Made by a program: the position numbers and the translations under genes
In this document: one piece after another, positions 27,800-60,088 of the stretch
How the letters are laid out: each line of letters opens with the position of its first letter
How positions within the stretch are numbered: position 1 is the stretch's first letter
Notes under the pieces: model-generated
Database searches by the model: none
What the model was told of the DNA's origin: nothing
Seen by the model: the letters and a program-made list of their open reading frames with translations, nothing else
Sequence record: OR352953.1
Direction: 5' to 3' (one strand)
Source: Escherichia phage AV123
DNA length: 64,000 bases

Positions 27800-28429
27800 A
27801 TGGCAGTGAGTGTTGACCATGTGACAACGTGGGATAGTATCAATGAAGATGTTAAAGACCTACTGATTGAAGATTTTAAATCTTCTCCGAACATTGTCAA
27901 ACTACTCTATATCATTTCTAGCGAAAAACAAAAGATAGATCAGGCAATGATCTATCTTGCCAAACACCGCTTAATCTCTACTGCAACTGGTAAGTATTTA
28001 GATCTTATTGGTGAAGAGATGGGGATGGAAAGAAATGGTGCTACAGATGAAGAGTATCGTACAATATTAAAAATCAGGGCTTATCGTGTTGCGTCTTCTG
28101 GTACGCGAGATGATATCATTGATATGTTCGCTCGTTTTACAGGAACAGAAAAAGAAACGATTAATACATACGTTGGATTAAATAAAACATTCGACGTATT
28201 CTTTTATAATTTGTGTCTACAATCCGATCAGGCAGTAGCACAGTTACTTAACGTTTTCCCGATCCTAAGTAGTTATCGCTTAGGTGCGAAAGCGGGTGCA
28301 GCCTTTGGTTTCACTTCCTATTATGCCACAACTCCACCTCATGGTATAGGTGGTTTAGGTTCTCTTTACACAGAGGCTGAAGGAGATGATACAGGGCGAA
28401 TGACTATGCTGATAGCTCAAATAGAATAA
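27800..28429 (+). CDS. baseplate/tail protein (I-like, putative)
   Basis: 209 aa ORF between the J-like gene and the fibre gene. Confidence 0.35.
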   Translation: MAVSVDHVTTWDSINEDVKDLLIEDFKSSPNIVKLLYIISSEKQKIDQAMIYLAKHRLISTATGKYLDLIGEEMGMERNGATDEEYRTILKIRAYRVASSGTRDDIIDMFARFTGTEKETINTYVGLNKTFDVFFYNLCLQSDQAVAQLLNVFPILSSYRLGAKAGAAFGFTSYYATTPPHGIGGLGSLYTEAEGDDTGRMTMLIAQIE

Positions 28430-28442
28430 GGAGTTACTCTTA

Positions 28443-29426
28443 ATGGCAAAGCCACAATACTACCCTGACTGGGCGACACAAACAGTAACCCTCCCAGGAA
28501 CGGGAAACACAAACAAGATTAGACCAAAAGAAACCATCCGTAATGTTGGTATGGACTTTGGTCAGATTATGACTTGTGAAGAAATGAACTGGATCTTAAA
28601 CAATATTGGGTCTTGGATTCGCTATATGCAAGATGAATTCTTCCCAACATTGCCTACTACATATCTTCCTATAGTCGGTACTAAAATTACAATGGCAGGT
28701 GATGCTACAGGTGAAGTTACATGGAATGGTAATGCTGCTGTAACATTATCTATTCAAGTCGTAGATAACAGCCATAATCACTTATCAGCTAATATTACAG
28801 ACGCAACATCAAACCAAGTTGTAGGGAATGTCCTTGTTAAGCGTGATAATGGTGGTGCTATCTATGCAGGTGATATTTACACTTGTGGTACAGGTGCTAC
28901 AGATCCTGCAACATTATTTTTTAGAAACTACAACGGACAAACAGTAGGTAATATGTCCTCTGAACCAGGTGCAGGTGGTCAACTCTATATTTATAGAATG
29001 AACCCATCAACTGGAGGAACATCTTGTGCAGTCCGTTTATATGATGCAGGTTATGTTTTAATAGACAACCCTCGTTCTAATTCTGGTCAAGATACTGGTA
29101 ATGGTAATGCTCTTGTAAGATTAGACTATCTTAACTCCAGACTAAACTCATTGCAAAGCACACTGCAAAATAATATTAACAACGTTAATAGTAACTTGCA
29201 AGGCCAAATTAATAGCATTAACAATAGAGTTTCTTCTGTTGTGTCTGCTATCCGTCTTGGAACACGTATCCAAGCTGGTGTGTCTGAGTCTCGTTTCTAT
29301 GCTGGTCACGTGATCACAGGTTGGGGTTTTGGTGACAAGAAAGAACTTCGTGGTGCTTGGTATTGGTCAGCCCCGCTACAATATTATATTAATGGTAGCT
29401 GGATAACAGTAACCAACGTTTCGTAA
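28443..29426 (+). CDS. tail fibre protein (putative)
   Basis: 327 aa with a heptad-like Asn/Gln-rich segment (LNSRLNSLQSTLQNNINNVNSNLQGQINSINNRVSSV). RBS AAGGAG. Followed by a chaperone-sized gene. Confidence 0.45.
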   Translation: MAKPQYYPDWATQTVTLPGTGNTNKIRPKETIRNVGMDFGQIMTCEEMNWILNNIGSWIRYMQDEFFPTLPTTYLPIVGTKITMAGDATGEVTWNGNAAVTLSIQVVDNSHNHLSANITDATSNQVVGNVLVKRDNGGAIYAGDIYTCGTGATDPATLFFRNYNGQTVGNMSSEPGAGGQLYIYRMNPSTGGTSCAVRLYDAGYVLIDNPRSNSGQDTGNGNALVRLDYLNSRLNSLQSTLQNNINNVNSNLQGQINSINNRVSSVVSAIRLGTRIQAGVSESRFYAGHVITGWGFGDKKELRGAWYWSAPLQYYINGSWITVTNVS

Positions 29427-30338: not shown

Positions 30339-32752
30339 TGGCGAATTTTCCAACATATCCTGCTACGACACTAGAACAAGGTGTTGATCTGGTTATATTC
30401 TCGTCTAACCAGATGCATGATGTTATTAATGGAGATGCTACAGCAACTGTAGAAACCGAAACAGGTTTAATACCTACACTGCGTAAAGCACTTGTTGATA
30501 ACTTCTTCTTTAAGAGTCCTGTTGCTTGGTCAGCAGGATCAACTGAAACTGTATTTAACCAGTTACGTTATTTTGAAAACGGTATCTTGAGTGGGTACTA
30601 TTATGCCCCATCTGCCACTACTGCTAACCCTGTACCTATGCAGGGTACACCTGTAGGAGACAGTAACTGGACTCTGTACGCTCTTAAAACTGAACAGTTA
30701 GCTTCAGATGTGTATCCTTGGTATTTTAAAGGTGCTACAGGATATGAAACAGAAATCAGTCCTCCTTATATCTTTGATAATGCTATTGTCACCATTAACG
30801 GTGTAATTCAGATTCAAGGTGAAGCATTTACTATCAAAGATAGTAAAATTATTCTGGCAGAACCATTAGGTTTAGATCCGTCTACTGGTCTACCTAACAA
30901 ATTGTTTGCTTTTATTGGTAAAACAACAGCCTCTACTTCCTACGTAGAGAAAAACCTTTTGTCATCTACCACTGGTGCAGCAATGATTGGTCTTCCATCT
31001 GGAGGCAACCTGTTACAAGCTCAATACTTTGTAACGCCTGAGCAGTTTGGTGCAATTGGTGATGGAGTTACCGATGATACTCAAGCAATTTTAAAAACTA
31101 TTACTTTCGCTAACACGAATAACATTCAAGTACGTGCAGATAAGAATTATAGATTCACAAGCTCAATTGCTATGTCTGGTATTCGTTGGTATGGTGGTAC
31201 ATTCACTGGTAACGGTGGAACAATGATTTCTACTGTGTCCTGTTGGATGGAAAACGTTCGCTTTGAAAAATGTTATGTTAAGATGTTAGGTGGTGATTGC
31301 CGATTCTATCGTAATATCTTCTCCAACGCAACATCTACAGCAGCATTCTTAATGCAAGCAATGACAAGTGAAGGTACGTTGGACTTCAGTTACAACGAAA
31401 TGTATGGTTGTAAATATGCGATCCTGCAACAAGGTACTGGAGAAGTAATGACCTACGGGCGTTACTCTAACAACTATATTCACGATATTAAAGGTGATGC
31501 TATTGAACTTAACGTAGTTCAAAAACACTACACTGAAGGTTTGATTATCGAGAATAACCACATTGCTAACGTAGATGCTTCTGGACAAGGTGCAAACTGG
31601 GGTATTGGTATTGGTGTAGCAGGTAGTGGCCCATATGGTGTTGATGTTCCTGATTCACAATATGTACGTAATTTCAGTATCGTTGGGAATAGGGTTTACA
31701 ATTGCCGTCAATGTTTACACGTTGAAATGGGTAAAAACTTCACAATACGTGATAATGAAGTTTATCCTAACACAGCAGTTTCAACAGGTACAGGTTTAAC
31801 TACTTGTGGTGTTGCATTATACGGATGCCAAGATTTTGAAGTTGATGGTTTAACTGGTTATCTGCTTAATGATCCATCTGTTTCAACACGCATGGTCTTT
31901 ATTGACTGGGGTGTTAACAGTGGAAGATATGCGGGGCCACCAATTAACTTTACAATTAAGAATTTGGATATTCCAGAATCTTCAATTGAGATTGCAACAT
32001 CTGGATCAGATGACTGGGAAAACTCTACAATTGTTAGTAATATCAATTGTAATGTTTTTAAATGGCGTGGGCTACCATCTAGCTCTACCTTTAATAATAT
32101 TCGTTGCCGTAGTATTGACTTTATTGGTCAACACGGAAGCGGAGAAGGAAGTGGTGGCGGTTTCTATACTCGCAGCCAATTCACGTATATGAAGTGGGTA
32201 GGATGTACAGCACTTAGCGGAGATGAAACAACAGTTTCTTTTGCTAAAATCTACACTGATCGTTGCGATCAGGTTGGAAATAACTTTGGTGTTCCAACTG
32301 CTGTTGATGGAACAGGTCATCGTGGGCCAGTTTTAACTACTATTTCTGAACAATATTTTACAACTTATGATGAATTCCCAGGTGGGCGTGAATTCCCTAC
32401 TGGAACAGTTATTCATTGTGCAAGCGGTAAAAAACATGTTGTTACAGTAGGTGGTGCTTTCTTTAGTGCCAACGAGAAAATAAAAGCAACTGTTACAGGT
32501 CAAACCTATCTACAGTCTAATGCTTTAAACTGGGCTAGTAATGGCTACGCTAAAGCAGCAGGTACTAAGATTGTTATTCCAGGTGCAGGTGCAAATGGCG
32601 GCGATCTTGTGACAACTATAGCACGTGCTACATATGTGACAAATAGTTTGTACACAATAGATATTGCAGATCCAATTGTAACACCTACAGCAGAGAATAC
32701 ACAAATTAAAGCTCTGAACCCTGTTACTTTTGTTACTGTCAATAATGCTTAA
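30338..32752 (+). CDS. tailspike protein with pectate-lyase-like beta-helix (putative polysaccharide depolymerase)
   Basis: 804 aa containing FGAIGDGVTDDTQAILKTI (pectate-lyase-3 type hallmark) and downstream repeats typical of beta-helix rungs. Confidence 0.65.
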   Translation: MANFPTYPATTLEQGVDLVIFSSNQMHDVINGDATATVETETGLIPTLRKALVDNFFFKSPVAWSAGSTETVFNQLRYFENGILSGYYYAPSATTANPVPMQGTPVGDSNWTLYALKTEQLASDVYPWYFKGATGYETEISPPYIFDNAIVTINGVIQIQGEAFTIKDSKIILAEPLGLDPSTGLPNKLFAFIGKTTASTSYVEKNLLSSTTGAAMIGLPSGGNLLQAQYFVTPEQFGAIGDGVTDDTQAILKTITFANTNNIQVRADKNYRFTSSIAMSGIRWYGGTFTGNGGTMISTVSCWMENVRFEKCYVKMLGGDCRFYRNIFSNATSTAAFLMQAMTSEGTLDFSYNEMYGCKYAILQQGTGEVMTYGRYSNNYIHDIKGDAIELNVVQKHYTEGLIIENNHIANVDASGQGANWGIGIGVAGSGPYGVDVPDSQYVRNFSIVGNRVYNCRQCLHVEMGKNFTIRDNEVYPNTAVSTGTGLTTCGVALYGCQDFEVDGLTGYLLNDPSVSTRMVFIDWGVNSGRYAGPPINFTIKNLDIPESSIEIATSGSDDWENSTIVSNINCNVFKWRGLPSSSTFNNIRCRSIDFIGQHGSGEGSGGGFYTRSQFTYMKWVGCTALSGDETTVSFAKIYTDRCDQVGNNFGVPTAVDGTGHRGPVLTTISEQYFTTYDEFPGGREFPTGTVIHCASGKKHVVTVGGAFFSANEKIKATVTGQTYLQSNALNWASNGYAKAAGTKIVIPGAGANGGDLVTTIARATYVTNSLYTIDIADPIVTPTAENTQIKALNPVTFVTVNNA

Positions 32753-32758
32753 TTAAAA

Positions 32759-32780
32759 AGGGGCGAAAGCCCCTTTATAA
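32759..32780 (+). terminator. terminator-like hairpin
   Basis: AGGGGC-gaaa-GCCCCT followed by TTAT. Confidence 0.45.
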
Positions 32781-32793
32781 AAGGAGTAGTAAA

Positions 32794-34755
32794 GTGATTT
32801 TAACACGTCCAAATAGTGCCATTGCAGACATGGTAGAGTCTCGCTATAGAAAGCGTAGAAGTTTTGCAAGTGGTTTTACCTTAAGAGATGCTCGTGAAGC
32901 ATTGCTCTTTGAAACTGACGGTAACTACTATCAGTGGAAAGGTTCTCTACCTAAAGTTGTACCTGCTAACTCTACTCCTACATCTACTGGAGGGATTTCA
33001 GATACAGCTTGGAAAAATGTGGGTAATGCAGATGACATTGCTCAAATAGAATCAGAATTAGATGCTATTGAAGCTGAAATTGAAGATCTTAGAGAATCCA
33101 TTCCAGAAGCTGGTAAATCAGCTTACCAGATTGCCGTAGACAATGGTTTCCAAGGTACTGAGACAGAGTGGTTGGCTTCTTTAAAAGGTGATCCAGGTGC
33201 TCCATTAAAGCTGCTAGGGACGCTATCTAATACCAACCAATTACCTACAACTGGAAACAATGCAGGAGATGCATGGATTGTAGGCGAGAATATGTATGCT
33301 TGGGATGGTACTGCTTGGAGAAAAGTAAACTCACAGGGGCCAGAAGGTAAATCGGCTTATCAAGTTTGGCTTGCAGCAGGAAACCAAGGTACAGAACTAG
33401 ATTATCTTGCTTCAATTAAAGGTGATAAAGGGGAGCCTGGCCCAGAGGGGCCACAAGGTGTACCAGGTAACAATGCTAATGGTTTTGATTACCAAGGTGC
33501 AGCTAATTCCGTTTCAGATCTTCCTTCTGCATCTCCTGGAAACACATCTCAAGCATGGAATATTGGTACATATCTATACGTGTCAAACGGTGTAGAATGG
33601 ATCAATATGGGCGCTATAGTGGGGCCAAAAGGAGATAAAGGCGACAAAGGAGATAAGGGTAACACTGGTGATTCAGCTTATCAAGTCTGGTTAAACGCTG
33701 GTAACGTTGGTACTATTGACGAATATATTGCCTCTCTGAAAGGAGAAAAAGGTGATAAGGGAGATAAGGGTGATCAAGGTGAGCAGGGTATACAAGGCTT
33801 GACGGGGCCAACTGGTGCAGGGTTGACCATTATTGATATTCTGACTGACACTTCTGAACTACCACAAACTGGAGAAGATGGTGATGGTTATCTGATCAAT
33901 AATGAACTTTGGGTTTGGTTGCAAGGAGCCACACAGTGGACAAATGTTGGTCGTTTAGCTGGTACTCCAATCACTGCAAAAGGACACGTTGCGTCTGCAA
34001 GTGCACTTCCTCCTACATCCAATTACGGTGATGCTTATTTGACGGAAGATACAGGTCATCTTTACATTTACACCTATGATGAACAAACTCAAACTGCTGA
34101 ATATGTAGATATGGGTAGTTTGAAAGGTGATAAGGGTGAGAAAGGTGACGCTGGTACTAACGGTACAGACGGTGCTACTTGGATTGTTAAAACAACAGAT
34201 CCAATCTCTAGTGATGGTAAACAAGGTGATTATGCCTTTAATATCTCCACTGGCGAGGTGTTCTTAAAAACATCTGCAACTGTCTGGACTTCTCAAGGTA
34301 CACTACCTAGCATCACAGATGCACCTAGTGACGGTAAGATCTATGCTCGTAAAGATGGAGCATGGGAAGAACTAACTAGTTCTGTAGATGGTCAAGATAT
34401 AGTTCCAACAAAAGTAACAGCTAATTTTATAGAGGTTACAGCATACACCAACAACTCTGTTACAGGGGACTGGACACCTCCAGGAACACATAACATGAAT
34501 GTGTTGAATCTTACTGGTAACTCTACTATAAAAGCATGGCCTGGTGTCGAAGATAGCACAAAACCTAAACCATTCTCTGCAATAGTTTATCTTATCCAAG
34601 ATGCCACTGGGGGTCATACTGTTACTTTAGATCCATCTTACAAAGTAATTGGTTCTAGTGATATTAATACAGATCCTAACGGAGTAACAATACTACAACT
34701 AACATATTGTGGTGTTGGTGATTACGTGGATGCTATTGTTGCTAAACGCACATAA
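32794..34755 (+). CDS. tail fibre protein with collagen-like Gly-X-Y repeats and three tandem modules
   Basis: 653 aa, GTG start with AAGGAG RBS. G-X-Y runs (GDKGEPGPEGPQGVPG; GPKGDKGDKGDKGNTGD; GEKGDKGDKGDQGEQGIQGLTGPTG; GDKGEKGDAGTNGTDG). A threefold repeated module (KSAYQ..G.QGTE..WLASLKGD..; LPTTG..GDAW). Confidence 0.6.
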   Translation: MILTRPNSAIADMVESRYRKRRSFASGFTLRDAREALLFETDGNYYQWKGSLPKVVPANSTPTSTGGISDTAWKNVGNADDIAQIESELDAIEAEIEDLRESIPEAGKSAYQIAVDNGFQGTETEWLASLKGDPGAPLKLLGTLSNTNQLPTTGNNAGDAWIVGENMYAWDGTAWRKVNSQGPEGKSAYQVWLAAGNQGTELDYLASIKGDKGEPGPEGPQGVPGNNANGFDYQGAANSVSDLPSASPGNTSQAWNIGTYLYVSNGVEWINMGAIVGPKGDKGDKGDKGNTGDSAYQVWLNAGNVGTIDEYIASLKGEKGDKGDKGDQGEQGIQGLTGPTGAGLTIIDILTDTSELPQTGEDGDGYLINNELWVWLQGATQWTNVGRLAGTPITAKGHVASASALPPTSNYGDAYLTEDTGHLYIYTYDEQTQTAEYVDMGSLKGDKGEKGDAGTNGTDGATWIVKTTDPISSDGKQGDYAFNISTGEVFLKTSATVWTSQGTLPSITDAPSDGKIYARKDGAWEELTSSVDGQDIVPTKVTANFIEVTAYTNNSVTGDWTPPGTHNMNVLNLTGNSTIKAWPGVEDSTKPKPFSAIVYLIQDATGGHTVTLDPSYKVIGSSDINTDPNGVTILQLTYCGVGDYVDAIVAKRT

Positions 34756-34757
34756 TC

Positions 34758-34783
34758 AAAGCCCCTTCGGGGGCTTATTGTTT
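34758..34783 (+). terminator. rho-independent terminator
   Basis: AGCCCC-ttcg-GGGGCT followed by TATTGTTT. Confidence 0.55.
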
Positions 34784-34794
34784 AAGGAGATTAA

Positions 34795-36681
34795 ATGTAT
34801 CCTATTCCTTTATTTATGTCAACAACATCAGCTTCAGTAGTAACAGCTACATCTATAACTACTTCCTCTATTGGTATTGCAATAGTTGGTGGTAAAAAAC
34901 AACTGACATACACAGTTACACCGGAAGATGGTGCATTATTTGATATAGCTTTTTCATCTTCAGATGATACCAAAATGGTTATAGATAATAATGGTATGAT
35001 GGAGTTTGTTGCCGAAGGTGGTTTTGATGCAATAATGACAGCTAAAAATAATTTAGGTGCTGTCTTAACTGATCAATCTGGTGGTTATGCTTCAGAATTA
35101 AGTGTGTACACTGAAAGTCTATCGGCTATGGATGTAGGCACTACTCAACAGTTGGTTGCTACAATCCGTCCAGAAGGTGCTAAAGACCTTCCAGACATGG
35201 TAATTACATACACCACAACAGATCCAGAAGTAGCTACTGTAAGCTCTACAGGATTAATAACTGCTCTTAAAGATGGCAATTGCCGTATAGGTTGTACTGC
35301 AACGTATCAAGGAACAGTTGTGGCCTCTGATAGTTCTTATTTAGGTGTTAATGCTATTCCTGTTATTTCTAATGTAACAGCCGTGGCAAACAGTTATGGA
35401 GACGTTCGTGTTGCTTGGGATGTAACTGATCCGCTAGATGGTGATACTTATACTGTAGAAGTATTAGATTTAAGTGATAATAGTGTCCAGTGGACTACAA
35501 CAACCACAAATACTTACGCCTACTTTGATATCTCTGACTCTATTCCTCTTTATGGGTTTGCTCCAACATACCTTAAAATTAGCGTTAAGAGCACCAAAGC
35601 AGCAGCCGTTATCTTTAATAGCTCAATAGCTACAGATGATTCATTCATTAAAGAAGTTATTGTCTTTGCTGGACAAGATAACGTAAATGCACACTTTACA
35701 GAACTATCTGGCGCAAATAAAGCAGCAATGAGTAGCACAACAGCCCGTAATGCATATGCTACGCAACGTGGTTTAGCAAATGCTGAAGTTCTTCCGTTAA
35801 ATGCAGCTTCTGGATCATCAGCAGCAGATAAATATGCAGATGATAAAGCCGGAACAGGAACGCCAGACAACTACTGGTATGATCTGGATAACACAGCAGA
35901 TGGGCCATGCTTAACTAACTTTATCACTAAAGTCACACCTTATGCAAGTAAGGTTAAAGCAATTATTTGGGGACAAGGTGAAAATGATGCTGTATCAGCA
36001 TCTTCGACTGTTGCAGGTAGGTACAGTAACACTACACGTTACCATGATGCTACGATAGCTATCTTTGATAAGATGCGTACAATAGTTCCTGCTTCTCAAG
36101 CAAAAATTGTTTGGCAGATCCTAGGACGTTCTTATTTATATGGTGTAGAAGTTAATGGTGTGGATTGGCAGAAGTACAGAAATGTACAAAGAACCATCTC
36201 TACAGCACGTGATGATGTTATCATTGGTTCTTGGGTAGATGGTGCTGAACGTTACAGTGGTTATGTTTATGAAGAAGGTATTGATGGTCGTATCCATTAT
36301 ATTTCTTCTGTATACCAAACAGCAGCTACAAAACTTGCTAAATCGGCAGCAGACGGTACAGACTTAACATCAGCGTCACCTGTTTGGGTTGATATGTCTG
36401 TTCCAACAGGAGGAGCCGCTGTAAGACAAGCTAACCAAGATGCAATTATCTCTTGGGAACCAGCAGGATATACTAAACATTACTTCCGAAATGTAAACGT
36501 CCTCACAGCAGCAATTCTTACAGAACAAACCCTGGATACTAACACTTACACATTTACTTATGCAGATCAGGTTGAACAATATGGATTTGCAGCAGGTACA
36601 ACAGCGTTTGATGTTGCACACTATGATGCTGATAATGACGTGTTATCACCTCTTGTCAGATTTACAGTCAATGTTACATAA
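34795..36681 (+). CDS. virion-associated protein with Ig-like (Big_2-type) domains and a C-terminal SASA/SGNH-like esterase-like domain
   Basis: Big_2-like segments (e.g. TTQQLVATIRPEGAKDLPDMVITYTTTDPEVATVSSTGLITALKDGNCRIGCTA). C-terminal motifs FAGQDNVNAHF and IIWGQGENDA resemble the GQSN and WYQGESN motifs of sialate-O-acetylesterase-like enzymes, but the usual Ser is Asp here. Confidence 0.4.
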   Translation: MYPIPLFMSTTSASVVTATSITTSSIGIAIVGGKKQLTYTVTPEDGALFDIAFSSSDDTKMVIDNNGMMEFVAEGGFDAIMTAKNNLGAVLTDQSGGYASELSVYTESLSAMDVGTTQQLVATIRPEGAKDLPDMVITYTTTDPEVATVSSTGLITALKDGNCRIGCTATYQGTVVASDSSYLGVNAIPVISNVTAVANSYGDVRVAWDVTDPLDGDTYTVEVLDLSDNSVQWTTTTTNTYAYFDISDSIPLYGFAPTYLKISVKSTKAAAVIFNSSIATDDSFIKEVIVFAGQDNVNAHFTELSGANKAAMSSTTARNAYATQRGLANAEVLPLNAASGSSAADKYADDKAGTGTPDNYWYDLDNTADGPCLTNFITKVTPYASKVKAIIWGQGENDAVSASSTVAGRYSNTTRYHDATIAIFDKMRTIVPASQAKIVWQILGRSYLYGVEVNGVDWQKYRNVQRTISTARDDVIIGSWVDGAERYSGYVYEEGIDGRIHYISSVYQTAATKLAKSAADGTDLTSASPVWVDMSVPTGGAAVRQANQDAIISWEPAGYTKHYFRNVNVLTAAILTEQTLDTNTYTFTYADQVEQYGFAAGTTAFDVAHYDADNDVLSPLVRFTVNVT

Positions 36682-36683
36682 AC

Positions 36684-36712
36684 AAAAAGGAGCCTATTGG
36701 CTCCTTTTCTTT
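36684..36712. terminator. bidirectional intrinsic terminator at the strand-switch point
   Basis: AAAAGGAGCC-tatt-GGCTCCTTTTCTTTT between convergent genes; A-run on one side and T-run on the other. Confidence 0.6.
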
Positions 36713-36716
36713 TATC

Positions 36717-37148
36717 TTAATCAGTGAAAATTACGCTTACATCTTCTTTAGAGAAGAGTTTATGATCTTCACCTTTTGTCTCAAGAGTTTCATACAGGTT
36801 AAGAAGTTCTGAAACATCCTTCTCTACCAGTTTCTTCAATGTTGCAATTTTCTGTTTGCGATTCTTAATACGTTCAGCTACAACCTTACGTTGGTATCCG
36901 GCAGTACGATAACCTGAGAAAGTTACACCAGTGAGACTTGCAGTTACAGGATCGTAATGACGTTCAATCTGAAATTTATTAAAAGGTACAGCGTCATCAC
37001 GAATAATCTTACCGCCATTACTTACTTGACGAAGACCAGTAACTTGTTCCAGTCGTGCCATAGAAATCTTTGGAGACAGACCAGAGTCCAGGTTCATACC
37101 GTTGTTAATCAGTGCTTTCAGGGTGATTTTGCTGTTCAGTGTACTCAT
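36717..37148 (-). CDS. hypothetical protein
   Basis: 143 aa ORF. Start at 37148 is preceded by GGAGG and overlaps the 3' end of the methyltransferase gene by 44 nt. Confidence 0.4.
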   Translation of the reverse strand: MSTLNSKITLKALINNGMNLDSGLSPKISMARLEQVTGLRQVSNGGKIIRDDAVPFNKFQIERHYDPVTASLTGVTFSGYRTAGYQRKVVAERIKNRKQKIATLKKLVEKDVSELLNLYETLETKGEDHKLFSKEDVSVIFTD

Positions 37149-37836
37149 TTAGTCGTTCCTCCGCTTGCTTAAAAATATTTACATCGGCTTCACAGCCTAA
37201 GTATTCTCTACCTGTTAAAAGTGCCGCAACTTGTGTTGTTGCACTTCCAGAGAAGAAGTCTAAGACTACATCTCCTTCGTTGGTGTGTATATTAATAAGG
37301 TCACAAAACAAAGTCAAGTGCTTTTGTGTTGGATGAAAACGATCTGCTCCTTGATAGATAGGATACTCAAACACACCCTTATGGTAGGAAGCATTGAAGG
37401 TTGGCTTCGAACCTTTAACACAAACAATAGCCATCTCTTTAGCGTTACTAAGGTAGTTAACACCACTGTTGATGGGTACAGGGTTTGTTTTAATCCATTC
37501 AATAGTACGGAACATACGAAAACCAAGCGGTTCAAGGATTTCACGTAGCTCCTGGATCTTCCAGATATCATACCAAACTATGCAAGTACCACCTTTTCTA
37601 AGCACCCTATAGGCTTCTTTGAATACTTCTTTAAAGTAAGGAATATCTACAACATCCCAATCACCAAAGTTGTAAGATACACGGAATCTATCTGTATCTT
37701 TTCCAGTAGGCTCTCCAGATTGAAAATTTGTATCACGAGAAATAGCATATGGTGGGTCAGTAAGAATCAAATCTACACTGTTGCTTTCGAGGGTTTGCAG
37801 GTAGTTTAATGCGGTGTTGTTTACAAATTCGCTCAT
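37105..37836 (-). CDS. DNA methyltransferase, beta-class (N6-adenine or N4-cytosine)
   Basis: Motif IV LILTDPPYAIS precedes motif I VVLDFFSGSATT (order IV then I is typical of beta-class amino-MTases). RBS AAGGAGA. No adjacent restriction endonuclease recognised. Confidence 0.75.
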   Translation of the reverse strand: MSEFVNNTALNYLQTLESNSVDLILTDPPYAISRDTNFQSGEPTGKDTDRFRVSYNFGDWDVVDIPYFKEVFKEAYRVLRKGGTCIVWYDIWKIQELREILEPLGFRMFRTIEWIKTNPVPINSGVNYLSNAKEMAIVCVKGSKPTFNASYHKGVFEYPIYQGADRFHPTQKHLTLFCDLINIHTNEGDVVLDFFSGSATTQVAALLTGREYLGCEADVNIFKQAEERLNEYTEQQNHPESTD

Positions 37837-37853
37837 TATATCTCCTTCAAAGA

Positions 37854-37877
37854 AAAGGAGCCGTTAGGCTCCTTATA
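37854..37877 (-). terminator. intrinsic terminator (minus strand)
   Basis: GGAGCC-gtta-GGCTCC hairpin with a U tract on the minus strand. Same stem sequence as the 36684 terminator. Confidence 0.5.
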
Positions 37878-37896
37878 TTCACACAATATTTAACTA

Positions 37897-38844
37897 TTAG
37901 AAACAGTGCAGGAAGTTTCGACCATACTGCAAACCAATAGGAGCAAATGGGATATCATCATCGAAATCTTGAACAACAGGTTCTGGCTCTTTCGGTGCTG
38001 GCTCTTTCTTCTCTACTTTTTTAGTTTCTTTCTTAACTTCTTGTACTGGGGTAGACATTCCACGGATAGCAGCAGCTACTTTATCAGACAAAGCAAGAAC
38101 TTCACGAGCAGCTTCAATAATCTCTTCTGCCGTTACAGTTTTACCTGTATGATCACGACAAGCATTAAGAATTGCGTGTCCAACTGAAGCACCAAGATCA
38201 TAATCAGTTACATCAACGCCACGATCTTTAGCAATTTCAGCTTTCAGAGTAACAGTTGCAGATTGTACCACACCAGCCAAATCGAAAGCATCACCTTTCA
38301 CACCAGCACGTAGAAGCTCCAGAGCGCCGTTTACAGCGTGTCCTGTTTCAATCCCTACGGTATCACGTTTTTTGTAGTTAGGCTTGCTACCATCGTTATT
38401 AGATGGCTTATTTCCACCTTTTGAAGAAGATTGTGCTTGCTGAACACCTTCTGTTGAAAGAATAGTGATTTTACCTTTAGAGGAATTGTAGTATGTTTTG
38501 CCATTCCATTCAGAAGGTTTAACATCCATAGTTAGTTCTACACCTTTTTCGATAGTAACCCACTTATCACCATCTTTAACTTGCAGGTTTTCATGTTCTG
38601 GGTGCAGTTTAACTTCACCTAAGCTAACCCAAACACCTTTATCATCAGCACCAGCACCTTTCTCTTTAATAAGCAGAGATGCTTTGTGAGTTGATTCAAT
38701 TTTCTTATCTGGCTGACCTGCAACCTTAATATAAGAGACTTTCATTTCATCAAACTTATCTAGTTTGACATATTCGACAATACCTTCAGCCCAGAATGCT
38801 TCTTTTTTAGTACGGCGGTCGATTTCAGAATTAATTACTGGCAT
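37897..38844 (-). CDS. single-stranded DNA-binding protein-like protein carrying an SSB C-terminal-tip motif
   Basis: Contains DFDDDIPF, identical to the last 8 residues of E. coli SSB, preceded by a Lys/Glu/Pro-rich linker; here it is followed by 15 more residues (APIGLQYGRNFLHCF). N-terminal half is beta-rich (possible OB fold). RBS AGAGGAG. Confidence 0.45.
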   Translation of the reverse strand: MPVINSEIDRRTKKEAFWAEGIVEYVKLDKFDEMKVSYIKVAGQPDKKIESTHKASLLIKEKGAGADDKGVWVSLGEVKLHPEHENLQVKDGDKWVTIEKGVELTMDVKPSEWNGKTYYNSSKGKITILSTEGVQQAQSSSKGGNKPSNNDGSKPNYKKRDTVGIETGHAVNGALELLRAGVKGDAFDLAGVVQSATVTLKAEIAKDRGVDVTDYDLGASVGHAILNACRDHTGKTVTAEEIIEAAREVLALSDKVAAAIRGMSTPVQEVKKETKKVEKKEPAPKEPEPVVQDFDDDIPFAPIGLQYGRNFLHCF

Positions 38845-38860
38845 AAATTCTCCTCTATAA

Positions 38861-39259
38861 TTACATTACTTTAACACAAAACTCTCGTAAAAGAGTAGCG
38901 TCAGTTTCTTCCAACAGGTATTTACCAAGACCAATACCAAAGCCTATTTCACCACTTTCAAAATGGAGAATTTGTATCTTTTCTCCACCAAGATTAATTA
39001 CTTTTGCTTTTCCAGGATTATCCAAAACATCTCGTATTGTATCCTGTAATAACATAAGCTCACGTTTTGTGATAGTGGTTTCAGATATCTCTTTGTTTTC
39101 TACTCTCACTGTTAAACGATTGTATCCACCAAAGAGACACAGTATTTGAATAAAAAAGGTATTATCTTGAGGTTCAACATCTTTTTTGGTTAGCTCAAGA
39201 CGATTAGTTTCTCTACTGTAGAACGTCTCGACTAAGATTTTAGAACGATTATCTGTCAT
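38861..39259 (-). CDS. hypothetical protein
   Basis: 132 aa ORF, co-directional and tightly spaced with its neighbours. Confidence 0.4.
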   Translation of the reverse strand: MTDNRSKILVETFYSRETNRLELTKKDVEPQDNTFFIQILCLFGGYNRLTVRVENKEISETTITKRELMLLQDTIRDVLDNPGKAKVINLGGEKIQILHFESGEIGFGIGLGKYLLEETDATLLREFCVKVM

Positions 39260-39302
39260 TCAAGTCCTCATAATAACACATAATTATAATGTTTGTCAAC
39301 AC

Positions 39303-39896
39303 TTAAATTTTAAATTCTTCATTGTTAAATGAATCCAGTGTACGTACTTCTGGTTCTTTGGGAATGAAAACGTCTTTTACAAAACGGAACATAGGGAAAC
39401 GTTCTGCCATTTTACGGACGTGTGCTTCTTTACCTGTGTATCGGTGATTAATAGTGCAAATATTAGTCTTCAATGCAAATTCAAAATCTGGATGATATAC
39501 ATAGTTTTGACCATCCCAGTAACACAGGCAGATAGCTACATCAAAGTTCCATACGATTTCACTGCGTACACCTTCTTCCATGATCATAAAGTTAAACTTA
39601 AGATCTTTATAGTATGCTTCAAATACCCATTTCAAATGTGGTAGTTCGGCATAAGTGTGTTCTGTTTGCTTAGTAAGTTGTTTCACATTACGTGCACCAA
39701 CACCCAACATCAAAAATTTCTCTACTAATACGAGTGTATTGTGGTTAGGCATACGCAAGTAAATGTCAATATCTTGCGCAGGTTTCTCTAATCGCCAATC
39801 ACGTACAGCGCCGCCAGCTACAATTGCAAACGGATCTACCAGTTGGCACATACGTAATACTTCTAAAGCTCGTACTTTTTGATCTTCAATATTCAT
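39303..39896 (-). CDS. minimal nucleotidyltransferase (Pol-beta superfamily, CCA-adding/poly(A) polymerase head-domain-like)
   Basis: AIVAGGAVRDWRLEKPAQDIDIYL matches the GGxVRD...DxD signature of class II tRNA nucleotidyltransferases. Only 197 aa, so no body/tail domains. RBS TAGGAGA. Confidence 0.5.
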   Translation of the reverse strand: MNIEDQKVRALEVLRMCQLVDPFAIVAGGAVRDWRLEKPAQDIDIYLRMPNHNTLVLVEKFLMLGVGARNVKQLTKQTEHTYAELPHLKWVFEAYYKDLKFNFMIMEEGVRSEIVWNFDVAICLCYWDGQNYVYHPDFEFALKTNICTINHRYTGKEAHVRKMAERFPMFRFVKDVFIPKEPEVRTLDSFNNEEFKI

Positions 39897-39931
39897 ATTT
39901 TCTCCTATCTCTTATGGTCTTTGCGTTATTC

Positions 39932-39949
39932 TAGATGTTCAAACATCTA
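39932..39949. promoter_or_regulatory. perfect palindrome TAGATGTT-ca-AACATCTA upstream of the nucleotidyltransferase gene (operator-like)
   Basis: 8 bp perfect inverted repeat with 2 bp spacer, 36-53 nt upstream of the start codon at 39896. Confidence 0.35.
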
Positions 39950-39970
39950 ATTATGAAATGGTTTAAAAGT

Positions 39971-40005
39971 GCGGAACAACCTTGGCAATCACAGATTGTT
40001 CCACA
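39971..40005 (-). terminator. terminator-like hairpin downstream of the DNA polymerase gene
   Basis: G(C)GGAACAA-N17-TTGTTCCAC inverted repeat with T/A-rich sequence after it on the minus strand. Long loop, so weak. Confidence 0.3.
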
Positions 40006-40033
40006 TAAAAACTCCTTTAAAATCAAATAGATA

Positions 40034-42613
40034 CTAGTGACAACTGGCCCATGAGTTACCAACATCGTAACCAGCAGTGAGAGGTACATTAAGATTGTAA
40101 TACTCACCAGCTTTATTAACAGCGATAGATGCTAATTCTCCAGCACGACTGTAGGCTGTAAACCAACCACCTTTTGGAGACTCATGTACGTTAGCCCAAA
40201 TCTTGCCAGTACGTTTCTCTTCCTCTTCTTTCCAGGCATTAACTTTATCCAAACATTCTTTATCAATTTTCTTTTGTTCATCTGGATCATCAACTTGAGT
40301 CCAACCTAAAGATTCTTTAGAGAACCATTTAAAATGCACCAGATCACGAGTTACTTCAAGCTGTGCTTCATCGTGATATGCAATCATTTGTTGAACGAAT
40401 GACTTATTTTTCCAGTCATCAACAAAAAAGTCAACAGCTAATCCTTCTTCTTCGATAAGATCGTCGTAGATAACCATTGCTCTTTTTGCACAAATAACAC
40501 CACCACTCTGGAACAGAGAGTTAAGTATTGCGTGTGCAGATCGTGTAGGTACTTTTCTACCATCAATACCAAGAATGTATTTCTTACCTGTTTTAACCCA
40601 AAAATCATGCAGACGTTCTTTAAGAAGCGCAAGAGGTTTTGCAGCTTCCCAGAAAGCATCGTATACAAGCTGTCCTGTATACATATCACTACCTATAGTT
40701 TTTGCTACTTTTGCAGCTTGAGCACCATAAGTAATACCATACTTAACAGATTTAGCAGGGCTTCGTTCAAACTTACGACCAATAGTGTCAGAAATACGTC
40801 GAGCCATCATTGTATGAACATCATTAGGTTTTTCCAATAACAGAGCATTACAATATTCGTGTGGTTCCTGCTCGTACCGCCAACAGTAGTGTGATTCTAT
40901 TTTTGCCTCAAGAGAATCAAAGTCATAACCAATTTGGAAATATTTTGGAACTTCTACACCAAATAAGTTACGCATTTCATATCCGTACAGAGATGTTACA
41001 CGTGGGATATTTGCTACTAACCTATGTTTCATACGAGACGTAGCTGCATCACACGTTGCAGCAGGAGTTGGTATACGACCATCAGCCCTTACTGCCGCCA
41101 GATAACCTTTATCGTAATCCTCTTCATCTTCTTCCCAATCAGCACCACCCCCTAGGATAGAGTTTCTACGATGTTTATACGTAAGATACTGCACAATCTG
41201 CGTAGCATAAGGAAACTTTTCACCTAGTGCTTCCAAGTTAGGACAAATATCCTTCTCTTGCCCTTTTGTAAAGGAAGGGTTAGTAAGCACTTTAACACCA
41301 CGACCTTTAGCTTTAGCAATACGATCTCTTAGTTTCCATTCCAAAGTTTCTGGTGTGCACTCCAGATGATCACATCTGTCCTGGCAGAAGTTAGATGCTA
41401 ATGTTTGATCAACATAGTCACGAATAGCTTTCTCCATTTGTGCTTCATCTTTCTTAATCTTAGTGCCAGATTTAAGAGTGATATCTTTATCTTTATATTC
41501 AGATGGACTCCAACCTAAACCAACCAGCCAATTTTTAATATGCGTAGTGTCGTCTAAAGTAGCAGGTACTGTAGGATCACAAATAGGTTCCTCTGCTGGA
41601 ATAGGGAGTTTAAACTCTTTACCTAATGCAAATAACCACCAACCATCTTCTTTTTGTACAAGTTCACCAGAATGTTTCTCTGCAAACTTTACCATGTTAC
41701 TTGAAGGTTCACCATTCTTTTTAAACTGTAGTTTAGGTGGAATGAATGATTTCAAATAACCTTTAGTAGCAGGTTTAGGAGGTAGCACAGGTTCTGCCTC
41801 TAAACGACATGCTTCCATTCGAGCATCCAGATCACGAATATTATCTTCTGCTTGTTTCATATTGAAAGCAAAGCCACGGTGCTCTTGACGTGTAATAATA
41901 TCAGCTACACGTTGTTCTAAGTTAAATGGTTCAGACCACTTACTATAATCACCCCACTCTTCCATCAAATAACGGAACACTGCGGTGTTAGCTTTGTTAT
42001 CGTAAATACAGTAATACAGCATATCTGCTGCAAATGTTCTAAATCTTTCAGCTTCAGGAATGTTTTTTCTGAAATCAATTTTAACATCCCCTCCAGCCTT
42101 CTTAGATAACTCTGCCAGACTATGACCACCGAAGCGATCAGGGTTTAGTGTCTTACTTAAGATCATAGTATCACAAATTTCAATGTTACTATTACCCCAA
42201 GTATTGTACTTAACACTGTAGTTGAGTTTAAAAAATAATTTAATTGCCAGTAAGTCGAAGTTAATGATGTTGTGTCCAACTACTTTGGTAATTTTATAGT
42301 TTGAATTACCTTTAAATTTACCTGTTCCATTTACAAAATCAGGAAAATCTTTAAGAGGGAAATGGGTATATTCTAAATGCTCATATTCCTCCAGTCGGTA
42401 TTCATACTTTCCGTCAGTCTCAACATACGGACGACCATCGAAAAGATATTTATCACCATCATGGAAAGCAATAATCTCTCCAGTATCATGACTTTCGCAC
42501 ACAATACAGTGCATTGCAAAACTATCTTTTAAACGATATGGACTTGCCAAGTAATCTACACTTTCGTCATTAAGCAAGTTGTTACTTTCAATGTCGAAAG
42601 TAAAAGCTCCCAT
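40034..42613 (-). CDS. DNA polymerase, family A, with 3'-5' exonuclease domain
   Basis: 859 aa. Exo I motif FDIES near the N-terminus; motif A-like DFDSLEAKI; motif B-like RSPAKSVKYGITYGAQ; motif C HDE (VAYHDEAQLEV). RBS AAGGAGGGAGA. Confidence 0.8.
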   Translation of the reverse strand: MGAFTFDIESNNLLNDESVDYLASPYRLKDSFAMHCIVCESHDTGEIIAFHDGDKYLFDGRPYVETDGKYEYRLEEYEHLEYTHFPLKDFPDFVNGTGKFKGNSNYKITKVVGHNIINFDLLAIKLFFKLNYSVKYNTWGNSNIEICDTMILSKTLNPDRFGGHSLAELSKKAGGDVKIDFRKNIPEAERFRTFAADMLYYCIYDNKANTAVFRYLMEEWGDYSKWSEPFNLEQRVADIITRQEHRGFAFNMKQAEDNIRDLDARMEACRLEAEPVLPPKPATKGYLKSFIPPKLQFKKNGEPSSNMVKFAEKHSGELVQKEDGWWLFALGKEFKLPIPAEEPICDPTVPATLDDTTHIKNWLVGLGWSPSEYKDKDITLKSGTKIKKDEAQMEKAIRDYVDQTLASNFCQDRCDHLECTPETLEWKLRDRIAKAKGRGVKVLTNPSFTKGQEKDICPNLEALGEKFPYATQIVQYLTYKHRRNSILGGGADWEEDEEDYDKGYLAAVRADGRIPTPAATCDAATSRMKHRLVANIPRVTSLYGYEMRNLFGVEVPKYFQIGYDFDSLEAKIESHYCWRYEQEPHEYCNALLLEKPNDVHTMMARRISDTIGRKFERSPAKSVKYGITYGAQAAKVAKTIGSDMYTGQLVYDAFWEAAKPLALLKERLHDFWVKTGKKYILGIDGRKVPTRSAHAILNSLFQSGGVICAKRAMVIYDDLIEEEGLAVDFFVDDWKNKSFVQQMIAYHDEAQLEVTRDLVHFKWFSKESLGWTQVDDPDEQKKIDKECLDKVNAWKEEEEKRTGKIWANVHESPKGGWFTAYSRAGELASIAVNKAGEYYNLNVPLTAGYDVGNSWASCH

Positions 42614-60067: not shown

Positions 60068-60088
60068 AAGGAGGCTTTCGCCTCCTTT
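60068..60088 (-). terminator. intrinsic terminator after the AAA ATPase gene
   Basis: AAAGGAGGC-tttc-GCCTCCTTT with AUUUAUAU downstream on the minus strand. Confidence 0.45.

Follow-up and report, generated by a model that had tools for sequence, protein, structure and literature searches.

A predicted head-only nucleotidyltransferase of a phi92-like Escherichia phage, its phage family, and the palindrome upstream of its gene

We analyzed a 64,000-nucleotide stretch of the genome of Escherichia phage AV123 (OR352953.1), referred to below as the window, whose positions we use throughout unless another genome is named. Its source is a phi92-like E. coli myophage (Justusliebigvirus, Stephanstirmvirinae); over ∼1.3 kb spanning the locus discussed here, it shares 99.5% identity with phage 92CQ and 97.6% with phi92. 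Our subject is the open reading frame (ORF) at 39303..39896 on the minus strand, the ortholog of Phi92_gp158 (a "nucleotidyltransferase" in RefSeq), together with a palindrome that lies upstream of it. In the reading that we prefer, and to which we assign a probability of roughly 0.55, this ORF would encode a catalytically competent, single-domain nucleotidyltransferase (NTase) of a phage-restricted family (PF26128/PHROG 1614), comprising the head and first neck helices of class II enzymes, and the palindrome would be a by-product of sequence decay.

A head-only relative of class II nucleotidyltransferases

The gene and its main elements are the following.

39303..39896, minus strand: coding sequence of a head-only Pol-beta-superfamily NTase, 197 amino acids, PF26128/PHROG 1614, ATG start (Phi92_gp158 ortholog)
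39902..39906, minus strand: Shine-Dalgarno sequence AGGAG, 5 nucleotides 5' of the ATG (read from the sequence; a ribosome-binding site is annotated in phi92)
39759..39818, minus strand: motif A, residues 27 to 46, AGGAVRDWRLEKPAQDIDIY, with metal-binding carboxylates D42 and D44 (assigned by conservation in 126 homologs)

The 197-amino-acid ORF and the GGAVRD...DIDIY signature described in an earlier, sequence-only reading of the window are both present, the signature as VAGGAVRDWRLEKPAQDIDIYL / VAGGAVRDWRLEKPAQDIDIY. PHROG 1614 ("nucleotidyltransferase") gives a full-length match (2e-34, residues 7 to 193), a signal well above chance. PF26128.2 is the only Pfam domain precomputed for the homologs, most of which carry it; we assign it to the window protein from this precomputed annotation of its relatives, which include a 99%-identical database protein. 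An exhaustive phmmer search recovered 522 representative clusters (50% identity) at E ≤ 1e-3, nearly all of them proteins of 170 to 250 amino acids that align to residues 1 to 175. Across 126 aligned homologs, G28, G29, D42, and D44 are invariant, and Q6, A10, A27, A30, R32, D33, W34, Y82, and K162 are conserved in at least 90%. The window protein displays the complete PF26128/PHROG 1614 signature (Q6, AGGAxRDW, DxDxY, Y82, and K162 in a single domain of ∼170 to 250 amino acids). The gene is under purifying selection, because 18 nucleotide differences from phage PD06 include just 3 amino acid changes. The gene is real and probably encodes an active enzyme. It is already catalogued, as an NTase in RefSeq and as a family in PHROG and Pfam; therefore, our finding adds no new entity.

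An AlphaFold2 model built from the homolog alignment (predicted local distance difference test [pLDDT] score, 93; predicted template modeling [pTM] score, 0.85) was used in favor of a single-sequence model (pLDDT, 34), which we discarded. Its highest-scoring structural match was E. coli poly(A) polymerase (PAP) I (score, 12.2), ahead of an A-adding enzyme (11.1), CCA-adding enzymes (10.6 and 10.4), a CC-adding enzyme (10.1), the human CCA-adding enzyme (9.7), and 2la3, a stand-alone "CCA-adding enzyme head domain" (9.6); MenT1 (8.3) and CD-NTases (about 7) scored lower. Foldseek gave the same outcome, with class II enzymes nearest to the model. Two features of class II CCA-adding enzymes and PAPs are therefore found here: motif A (GGxxRD...DxD, with the two catalytic aspartates) and the head-domain fold.

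At the level of sequence, significant alignment to solved CCA enzymes is limited to motif A: the family profile reaches an E value of about 3e-4 against them over motif A only, and the single sequence used as a query against the PDB returned no significant match. When aligned to E. coli Cca with hhalign, residues 25 to 172 fall on Cca residues 4 to 150, a span that takes in the head and the first helices of the neck (E = 6e-4); the register outside motif A is uncertain because the probability of this alignment is just 29%. The Pfam model PolyA_pol (PF01743) covers residues 26 to 81 only, at 19.1 bits versus a gathering score of 23, and reaches E ≤ 0.01 in just 19 of the 126 family members, while the NCBIfam CCA equivalogs remain far under their cutoffs (15 bits versus 290 and 13.9 bits versus 281). 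The kinship with class II CCA-adding enzymes and PAPs that had been proposed from the sequence therefore stands insofar as it concerns the head fold and motif A. It is qualified by PolyA_pol, which stays below its gathering score, and by the specificity motifs RRD and EDxxR, which are absent; the sequence profiles are divided, with PHROG 1614 strong over the full length and PolyA_pol weak.

In class II enzymes, RRD (motif B) serves in ribose discrimination, EDxxR (motif D) acts as an amino acid template in the selection of C or A, and the body and tail domains bind and measure tRNA. None of the 126 family members contains RRD; the residues of the window protein facing motif B, N117-F118-D119, are not conserved. 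ED..R is found in 7 of the 126, at no conserved position, and the residues facing motif D are K156-E157, with the arginine falling within a gap; both pairings come from the low-confidence alignment described above. The sequence-only reading had also judged the protein too short to include body and tail domains, and we agree: it has 197 residues in a family of similarly short proteins, and a scan of longer homologs (250 to 400 amino acids) for informative fused domains added no Pfam domain. Three defining features of class II CCA-adding enzymes and PAPs are thus missing from a protein that has their fold and their motif A. It would operate as a catalytic head of the Pol-beta/class II kind. Because RRD, EDxxR, and the body and tail that measure tRNA have been lost, it does not by its defining motifs belong with the canonical CCA-adding enzymes and is best not classified among them, and its substrate selection would have to differ. 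We also looked for a universal small partner gene, adjacent to the NTase gene, that might supply the missing domains in trans, but found none; the immediate neighbors vary between lineages.

E. coli Cca and PcnB, whose heads belong to PF01743, have about 400 to 470 amino acids, whereas the window protein lacks the body and tail and retains just a stub of the neck; PF26128 proteins, moreover, are confined to phages and carry conserved residues of their own (Q6, W34, Y82, and K162). The bacterial stand-alone CCA head domain NP_344798.1 (PDB 2la3; 191 amino acids) is 9% identical to the window protein and is not recovered by sequence searches. NTases of the MenT/AbiEii and MNT toxin-antitoxin systems are less similar in structure than the class II enzymes are, with no match to the Pfam models of those families, and PADLOC gave zero matches.

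In the mechanism that we propose, D42 and D44 would hold two metal ions (Mg), with E93 as a possible third carboxylate, and a nucleoside monophosphate would be moved from a nucleoside triphosphate onto a 3'-OH without a template. A family-specific pocket formed by W34, Y82, K162, and Q6 may stand in place of the RRD and EDxxR readers.

Phage distribution, gene neighborhood, and candidate acceptors

A profile search of 5.8 billion proteins matched solely single-domain PF26128 "hypothetical proteins." Among 185,579 bacterial and archaeal species, each represented by one genome, we found 12 matches, all on contigs of metagenome-assembled genomes; the six best of the 12 cover at least 87% of the query, and at least one is located on a 147.6-kb scaffold of the size of IMG/VR viral contigs. 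Since these 12 are the only matches in so many species genomes, the family is essentially phage-only. The nearest structures in BFVD likewise belong to phage proteins, of 167 to 225 amino acids, among them ICP1 ORF223 and "nucleotidyl transferases" from T7-like phages of Pectobacterium, Pseudomonas, and Providencia. The ICP1 homolog (Vibrio phage ICP1_2006_A) matches residues 3 to 126 only and is annotated as two short ORFs (139 and 60 amino acids), which could reflect a truncation or frameshift in ICP1 isolates.

Our literature search on PF26128 found nothing, and that on phage CCA-adding or tRNA-repair NTases found annotation-level mentions only, with no functional study. Short "tRNA nucleotidyltransferase" genes have been described between the primase/helicase and DNA polymerase genes of Autographiviridae, their role being left open (PMC7693777, PMC8472413). 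Those of Pectobacterium phages PP2, PP47, and Q19 (Evseev et al. 2020, PMC7693777) are also head-only (∼170 to 190 amino acids) and are structural neighbors of the window protein (Foldseek E value, about 1e-7; TM, about 0.6). They share 17 to 19% identity with it, occur in podoviruses without tRNA genes, and probably constitute a sister family rather than members of the same Pfam family.

For gene context, we sampled 80 IMG/VR loci (24 to 52% identical, except for two phi92-likes), called their ORFs, and clustered the neighbors. A gp4-like primase-helicase (Toprim plus DnaB_C), a family A DNA polymerase (PolA), and homing endonucleases recur; a FEN exonuclease and an ATP-dependent ligase are less frequent. 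In 57 of 77 loci, corresponding to 26 of 37 groups when loci are collapsed at 50% identity, the NTase gene has a primase-helicase or PolA gene within 6 kb, and these neighbors are co-oriented with it in 95 of 97 instances. The gene is part of a T7-type replication module made up of primase-helicase, family A polymerase, NTase, and an SSB-like protein (SSB, single-stranded DNA-binding protein), and its context points to that module rather than to tRNA genes.

Phage T7 gp2.5 and gp4 dock on the polymerase by means of acidic tails whose last residue is aromatic. Phapecoctavirus orthologs of the NTase (37% identity) terminate in EEDDIPW or DDDIPW, near copies of the DFDDDIPF tip found in the SSB-like protein encoded two genes downstream and in E. 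coli SSB. Acidic tails with a terminal aromatic residue are present in 12 of 80 NTases versus 42 of 1011 other ORFs, and 21 of those 42 ORFs encode primase-helicases or SSB-like proteins. These C termini suggest that some family members may be recruited to the replisome; the tail of the window NTase, LDSFNNEEFKI, is only loosely of the SSB-tip type, so for this protein recruitment can only be inferred. In the SSB-like protein of the window itself (gp156 ortholog, 37897-38844, minus strand), DFDDDIPF is followed by a 15-amino-acid extension, APIGLQYGRNFLHCF; the proteins of sister genera end at ...DDDIPF.

Homology and context favor different acceptors. To our knowledge, every characterized class II relative acts on RNA, and because of this, and because MenT, a small NTase, can target tRNA ends, homology favors an RNA acceptor. 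Our tentative choice, held at somewhat less than even odds, is an RNA 3' end, either the tRNA acceptor end (in repair or tailing) or that of another small RNA. Gene context and the C-terminal tails instead favor an acceptor at the replication fork.

The canonical version of the RNA reading, and the leading suggestion of the sequence-only reading, is a minimal but bona fide CCA-adding or CCA-repair enzyme with which the phage would answer host nucleases or toxins directed against the 3' ends of tRNAs; it accounts for part of that choice and seems improbable to us. The fold and motif A are indeed of the class II CCA/PAP type, tRNA biology is something in which the phage invests (15 tRNA genes and an annotated RNA ligase in a near-identical genome), and single-domain NTases such as MenT can reportedly act on tRNA acceptor ends (PMC10435456). 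Yet such an enzyme would have to do without RRD, EDxxR, body, and tail; the Pfam and NCBIfam CCA models stay far below threshold; the gene is not linked to tRNA genes, and those of the phage encode CCA; and the host already has Cca.

A replisome-associated terminal transferase, which would be recruited to the phage replication fork and add nucleotides to the 3' ends of RNA primers, nascent DNA, or single-stranded DNA gaps, or would carry out a DNA-modification step, is possible but in our estimation rather unlikely. It would fit the conserved, co-oriented siting between the T7-type primase-helicase and family A polymerase, and beside the SSB-like protein, in 26 of the 37 divergent lineages, as well as the resemblance of Phapecoctavirus NTase tails to the SSB tip and the frequency of acidic-aromatic tails given above. 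An NTase among the replication genes of Gordonclarkvirinae has, independently, been tied to DNA modification, if speculatively (PMC11990801). However, most family members have no such tail and that of the window protein matches loosely, the protein has no DNA-binding domain, phage replication modules also hold unrelated anti-host genes, and the characterized class II relatives, as noted, all act on RNA. Improbable, too, is a broader proposal for the whole of PF26128, in which these proteins would be replisome-tethered terminal NTases of phages with T7-type replisomes. Docking by SSB-like tips (DDIPW in Phapecoctavirus), they would make untemplated additions at the 3' ends of primers, nascent strands, or single-stranded DNA, for example, to guard or mark intermediates against host exonucleases or defense sensors.

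MNT antitoxins AMPylate toxins, and the window protein might similarly nucleotidylylate a protein or small molecule in counter-defense, for example, by AMPylating a host toxin or by making or consuming a signaling nucleotide. We regard this as very unlikely: PADLOC was without matches, the neighborhoods hold no HEPN, antitoxin, or other partner gene, and the closest structures are clearly those of RNA-specific class II enzymes rather than those of MNT, ANT, or CD-NTases.

Several observations weigh against the reading that we prefer, some of them on catalysis and others on a role in RNA or tRNA metabolism. The third carboxylate is uncertain because position 93 is glutamate in only 57% of the 126 homologs (glutamate or aspartate in 67%), and the assignments of motifs B and D depend on a profile alignment of low confidence (probability, 29%). 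Gene neighborhood is weaker functional evidence in phages than in bacteria. tRNA genes lie within 6 kb of the NTase gene in only 6 of 60 loci, and homologs occur in T7-like phages and in ICP1 (no tRNA gene in the ∼10-kb stretches examined). The 64-kb window contains no tRNA genes; in the near-identical phage EC_OE_11, CCA is encoded in 15 of 15 tRNA genes, so the enzyme is not needed for their maturation, and we could rule out a requirement for it in maturing CCA-less phage tRNAs.

The upstream palindrome and a decayed homing-endonuclease gene

Upstream of the NTase gene, we distinguish the following elements.

39932..39949, no strand assigned: perfect inverted repeat TAGATGTT-ca-AACATCTA (8+8), 36 to 53 nucleotides 5' of the ATG
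39897..40006, minus strand: decayed HNH/AP2 homing-endonuclease gene (alignment to the intact 198-amino-acid ORF of relatives)
39965..40005, minus strand: 13-bp hairpin (39970-40005) followed by CUUUU, terminator-like, after the DNA polymerase gene (centroid RNA fold)
39957..39928, minus strand: weak sigma-70-like promoter candidate TTCATA-18-TAGAAT with the palindrome in its spacer (scan, 9 of 12 matches)
39979..39950, minus strand: weak sigma-70-like promoter candidate TTGTTC-18-CATAAT with the palindrome at about −1 to +17 (read from the sequence)

The perfect 8-bp inverted repeat had been noticed in the sequence-only reading, which took it for an operator-like site. The repeat is exactly where it was reported, at 39932-39949, but our analysis does not support its interpretation as an operator: it occurs as a single copy, lies inside the remnant of an HNH gene, has a degenerate counterpart in those phages (half of the genus) that still possess the gene, and is absent upstream of the orthologs in other genera.

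The 137-nucleotide "intergenic" region between the NTase and polymerase genes (39897-40033) is a decayed gene. PD06, PHB05, alia, VEcB, and other phages have at the same place an intact ORF of 198 amino acids, annotated "HNH endonuclease"; among 55 related records, this gene is present between polymerase and NTase in 28 and missing, as here, in 26. The remnant keeps the start codon (40004-40006) and the ribosome-binding site (40012-40018). A unique junction of 23 nucleotides (39981-40003) stands for the missing 519 nucleotides, and 84 nucleotides of the 3' coding end persist at 39897-39980. This last segment is only 73.5% identical to the intact gene, compared with 97 to 98% for the flanking genes, a divergence beyond neutral decay that suggests exchange with a diverged allele. 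A separate, partial HNH deletion in phage outra has left a remnant with a 40-amino-acid ORF. Presence/absence polymorphism, independent decay products, and diverged adjacent sequence are shared with free-standing HNH/AP2 homing-endonuclease genes; unlike these, the window holds a noncoding remnant only, and the palindrome is a feature of that remnant and not of the intact gene.

The 13-bp terminator-like hairpin arose at the deletion junction; a simple terminator scan missed it because of its 10-nucleotide loop and short T run. In relatives that contain the HNH gene, the second promoter candidate has a −10 element of TATAAT and a 17-nucleotide spacer. Rfam gave no match over 39200-40200.

Most likely, the palindrome arose as the sequence of the deleted homing-endonuclease gene decayed, and has no function. 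Neither the window nor the other 95 kb of the near-identical genome contains a further copy with up to 3 to 4 mismatches, the half-sites of the palindrome are not enriched, and no palindrome occurs upstream of orthologs in other genera. By itself, the repeat is not significant: the window holds 25 perfect inverted repeats (at least 8 bp, loop of at most 8) versus 10 ± 3 in Markov simulations. The surplus is made up of GC-rich hairpins resembling terminators, a group that does not include the AT-rich palindrome at 39932-39949. The corresponding position in HNH-containing relatives is coding sequence that reads GAAATGC-TTGA-GCATGTA; it has 6 of the 8 pairs and would not fold into a stable hairpin. 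In the window, the gene-strand RNA would form a modest hairpin of 7 bp with UUGA in its loop (−6.3 kcal/mol).

A point on the other side of the balance is that pairing is either kept or improved at each of the five differences from the HNH-containing allele, which include a compensatory T-A/C-G change; this hints at some selection. It is nonetheless unlikely, though worth keeping in mind, that the palindrome is a lineage-specific RNA element (a 5'-untranslated-region hairpin) or a promoter-proximal element. Less plausible still is a functional operator through which a dimeric DNA-binding protein would regulate the NTase gene. Its dyad symmetry is perfect over 8 bp and is kept or improved by those five differences, and it overlaps the weak sigma-70-like promoter candidates, in the spacer of one and across the start site of the other. 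Against this, there is one copy in about 145 kb; chance alone would provide about 10 such palindromes per 64 kb; the copy resides in a pseudogene remnant and is degenerate in 28 of the 55 related records; and there is neither a palindrome 5' of the orthologs in other genera nor an adjacent candidate regulator.

The GC-rich perfect hairpins recur between genes (36687-36706, 37855-37874, 60068-60087, 11443-11462, and 32757-32776). They are of the types AAGGAGCC-N4-GGCTCCTT (twice), AAGGAGGC-TTTC-GCCTCCTT, and AAAGGG(G)C-N4-GCCCTTT, and are probably terminators.

Neighboring genes and significance of the family

The NTase stop codon is directly followed by a sigma-70 promoter close to consensus, TTGACA-18-TATTAT, which has an extended −10 TG (39270-39299, minus strand) and lies upstream of a conserved, gp157-like ORF of 132 amino acids (38861-39259, PHROG 16560). 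On the other side of the HNH remnant, the family A DNA polymerase (40034-42613, minus strand) has 859 amino acids in the window and 1104 in phi92 and PD06. The longer allele contains a 245-amino-acid insertion (CVPMDAQ...ITITGN, then C) that is annotated as an intein in the BASEL record of phage PaulScherrer. We rejected the idea that the 859-amino-acid polymerase represents a split gene; it is the intein-less allele, and that of phi92 and PD06 bears the intein. Further along, an ORF for an N6/N4 DNA methyltransferase (Pfam N6_N4_Mtase, 1.9e-30) shares 44 nucleotides with the start of the next ORF downstream, of 143 amino acids (PHROG 20244) (pair at 36717-37148 and 37105-37836, minus strand).

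In the first 50 kb of EC_OE_11 (1-50000), the features at 36097-38960, 28286-29218, and 32651-35349, which fall outside the window, comprise tRNA genes (including Lys-UUU, Tyr-GUA, Asn, and Thr), along with an annotated RNA ligase that adjoins an ATPase and a pair of genes for phosphoribosyl pyrophosphate synthetase and nicotinamide phosphoribosyltransferase. This set is reminiscent of tRNA-repair and NAD-reconstitution counter-defense.

For the region upstream of the NTase gene, our analysis is a caution: an apparent "intergenic operator" is, in this case, the residue of a mobile endonuclease gene. The interest of the locus lies in the function of a widespread, phage-confined family (522 clusters) that has the catalytic head of CCA-adding enzymes and PAPs alone and travels with T7-type replication genes. 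If its members repair or tail tRNA 3' ends, they would be the smallest enzymes of the CCA/PAP lineage and likely a counter-defense tool; if instead they act at the replication fork, they would represent a new accessory to the replisome, derived from the head of a CCA enzyme.

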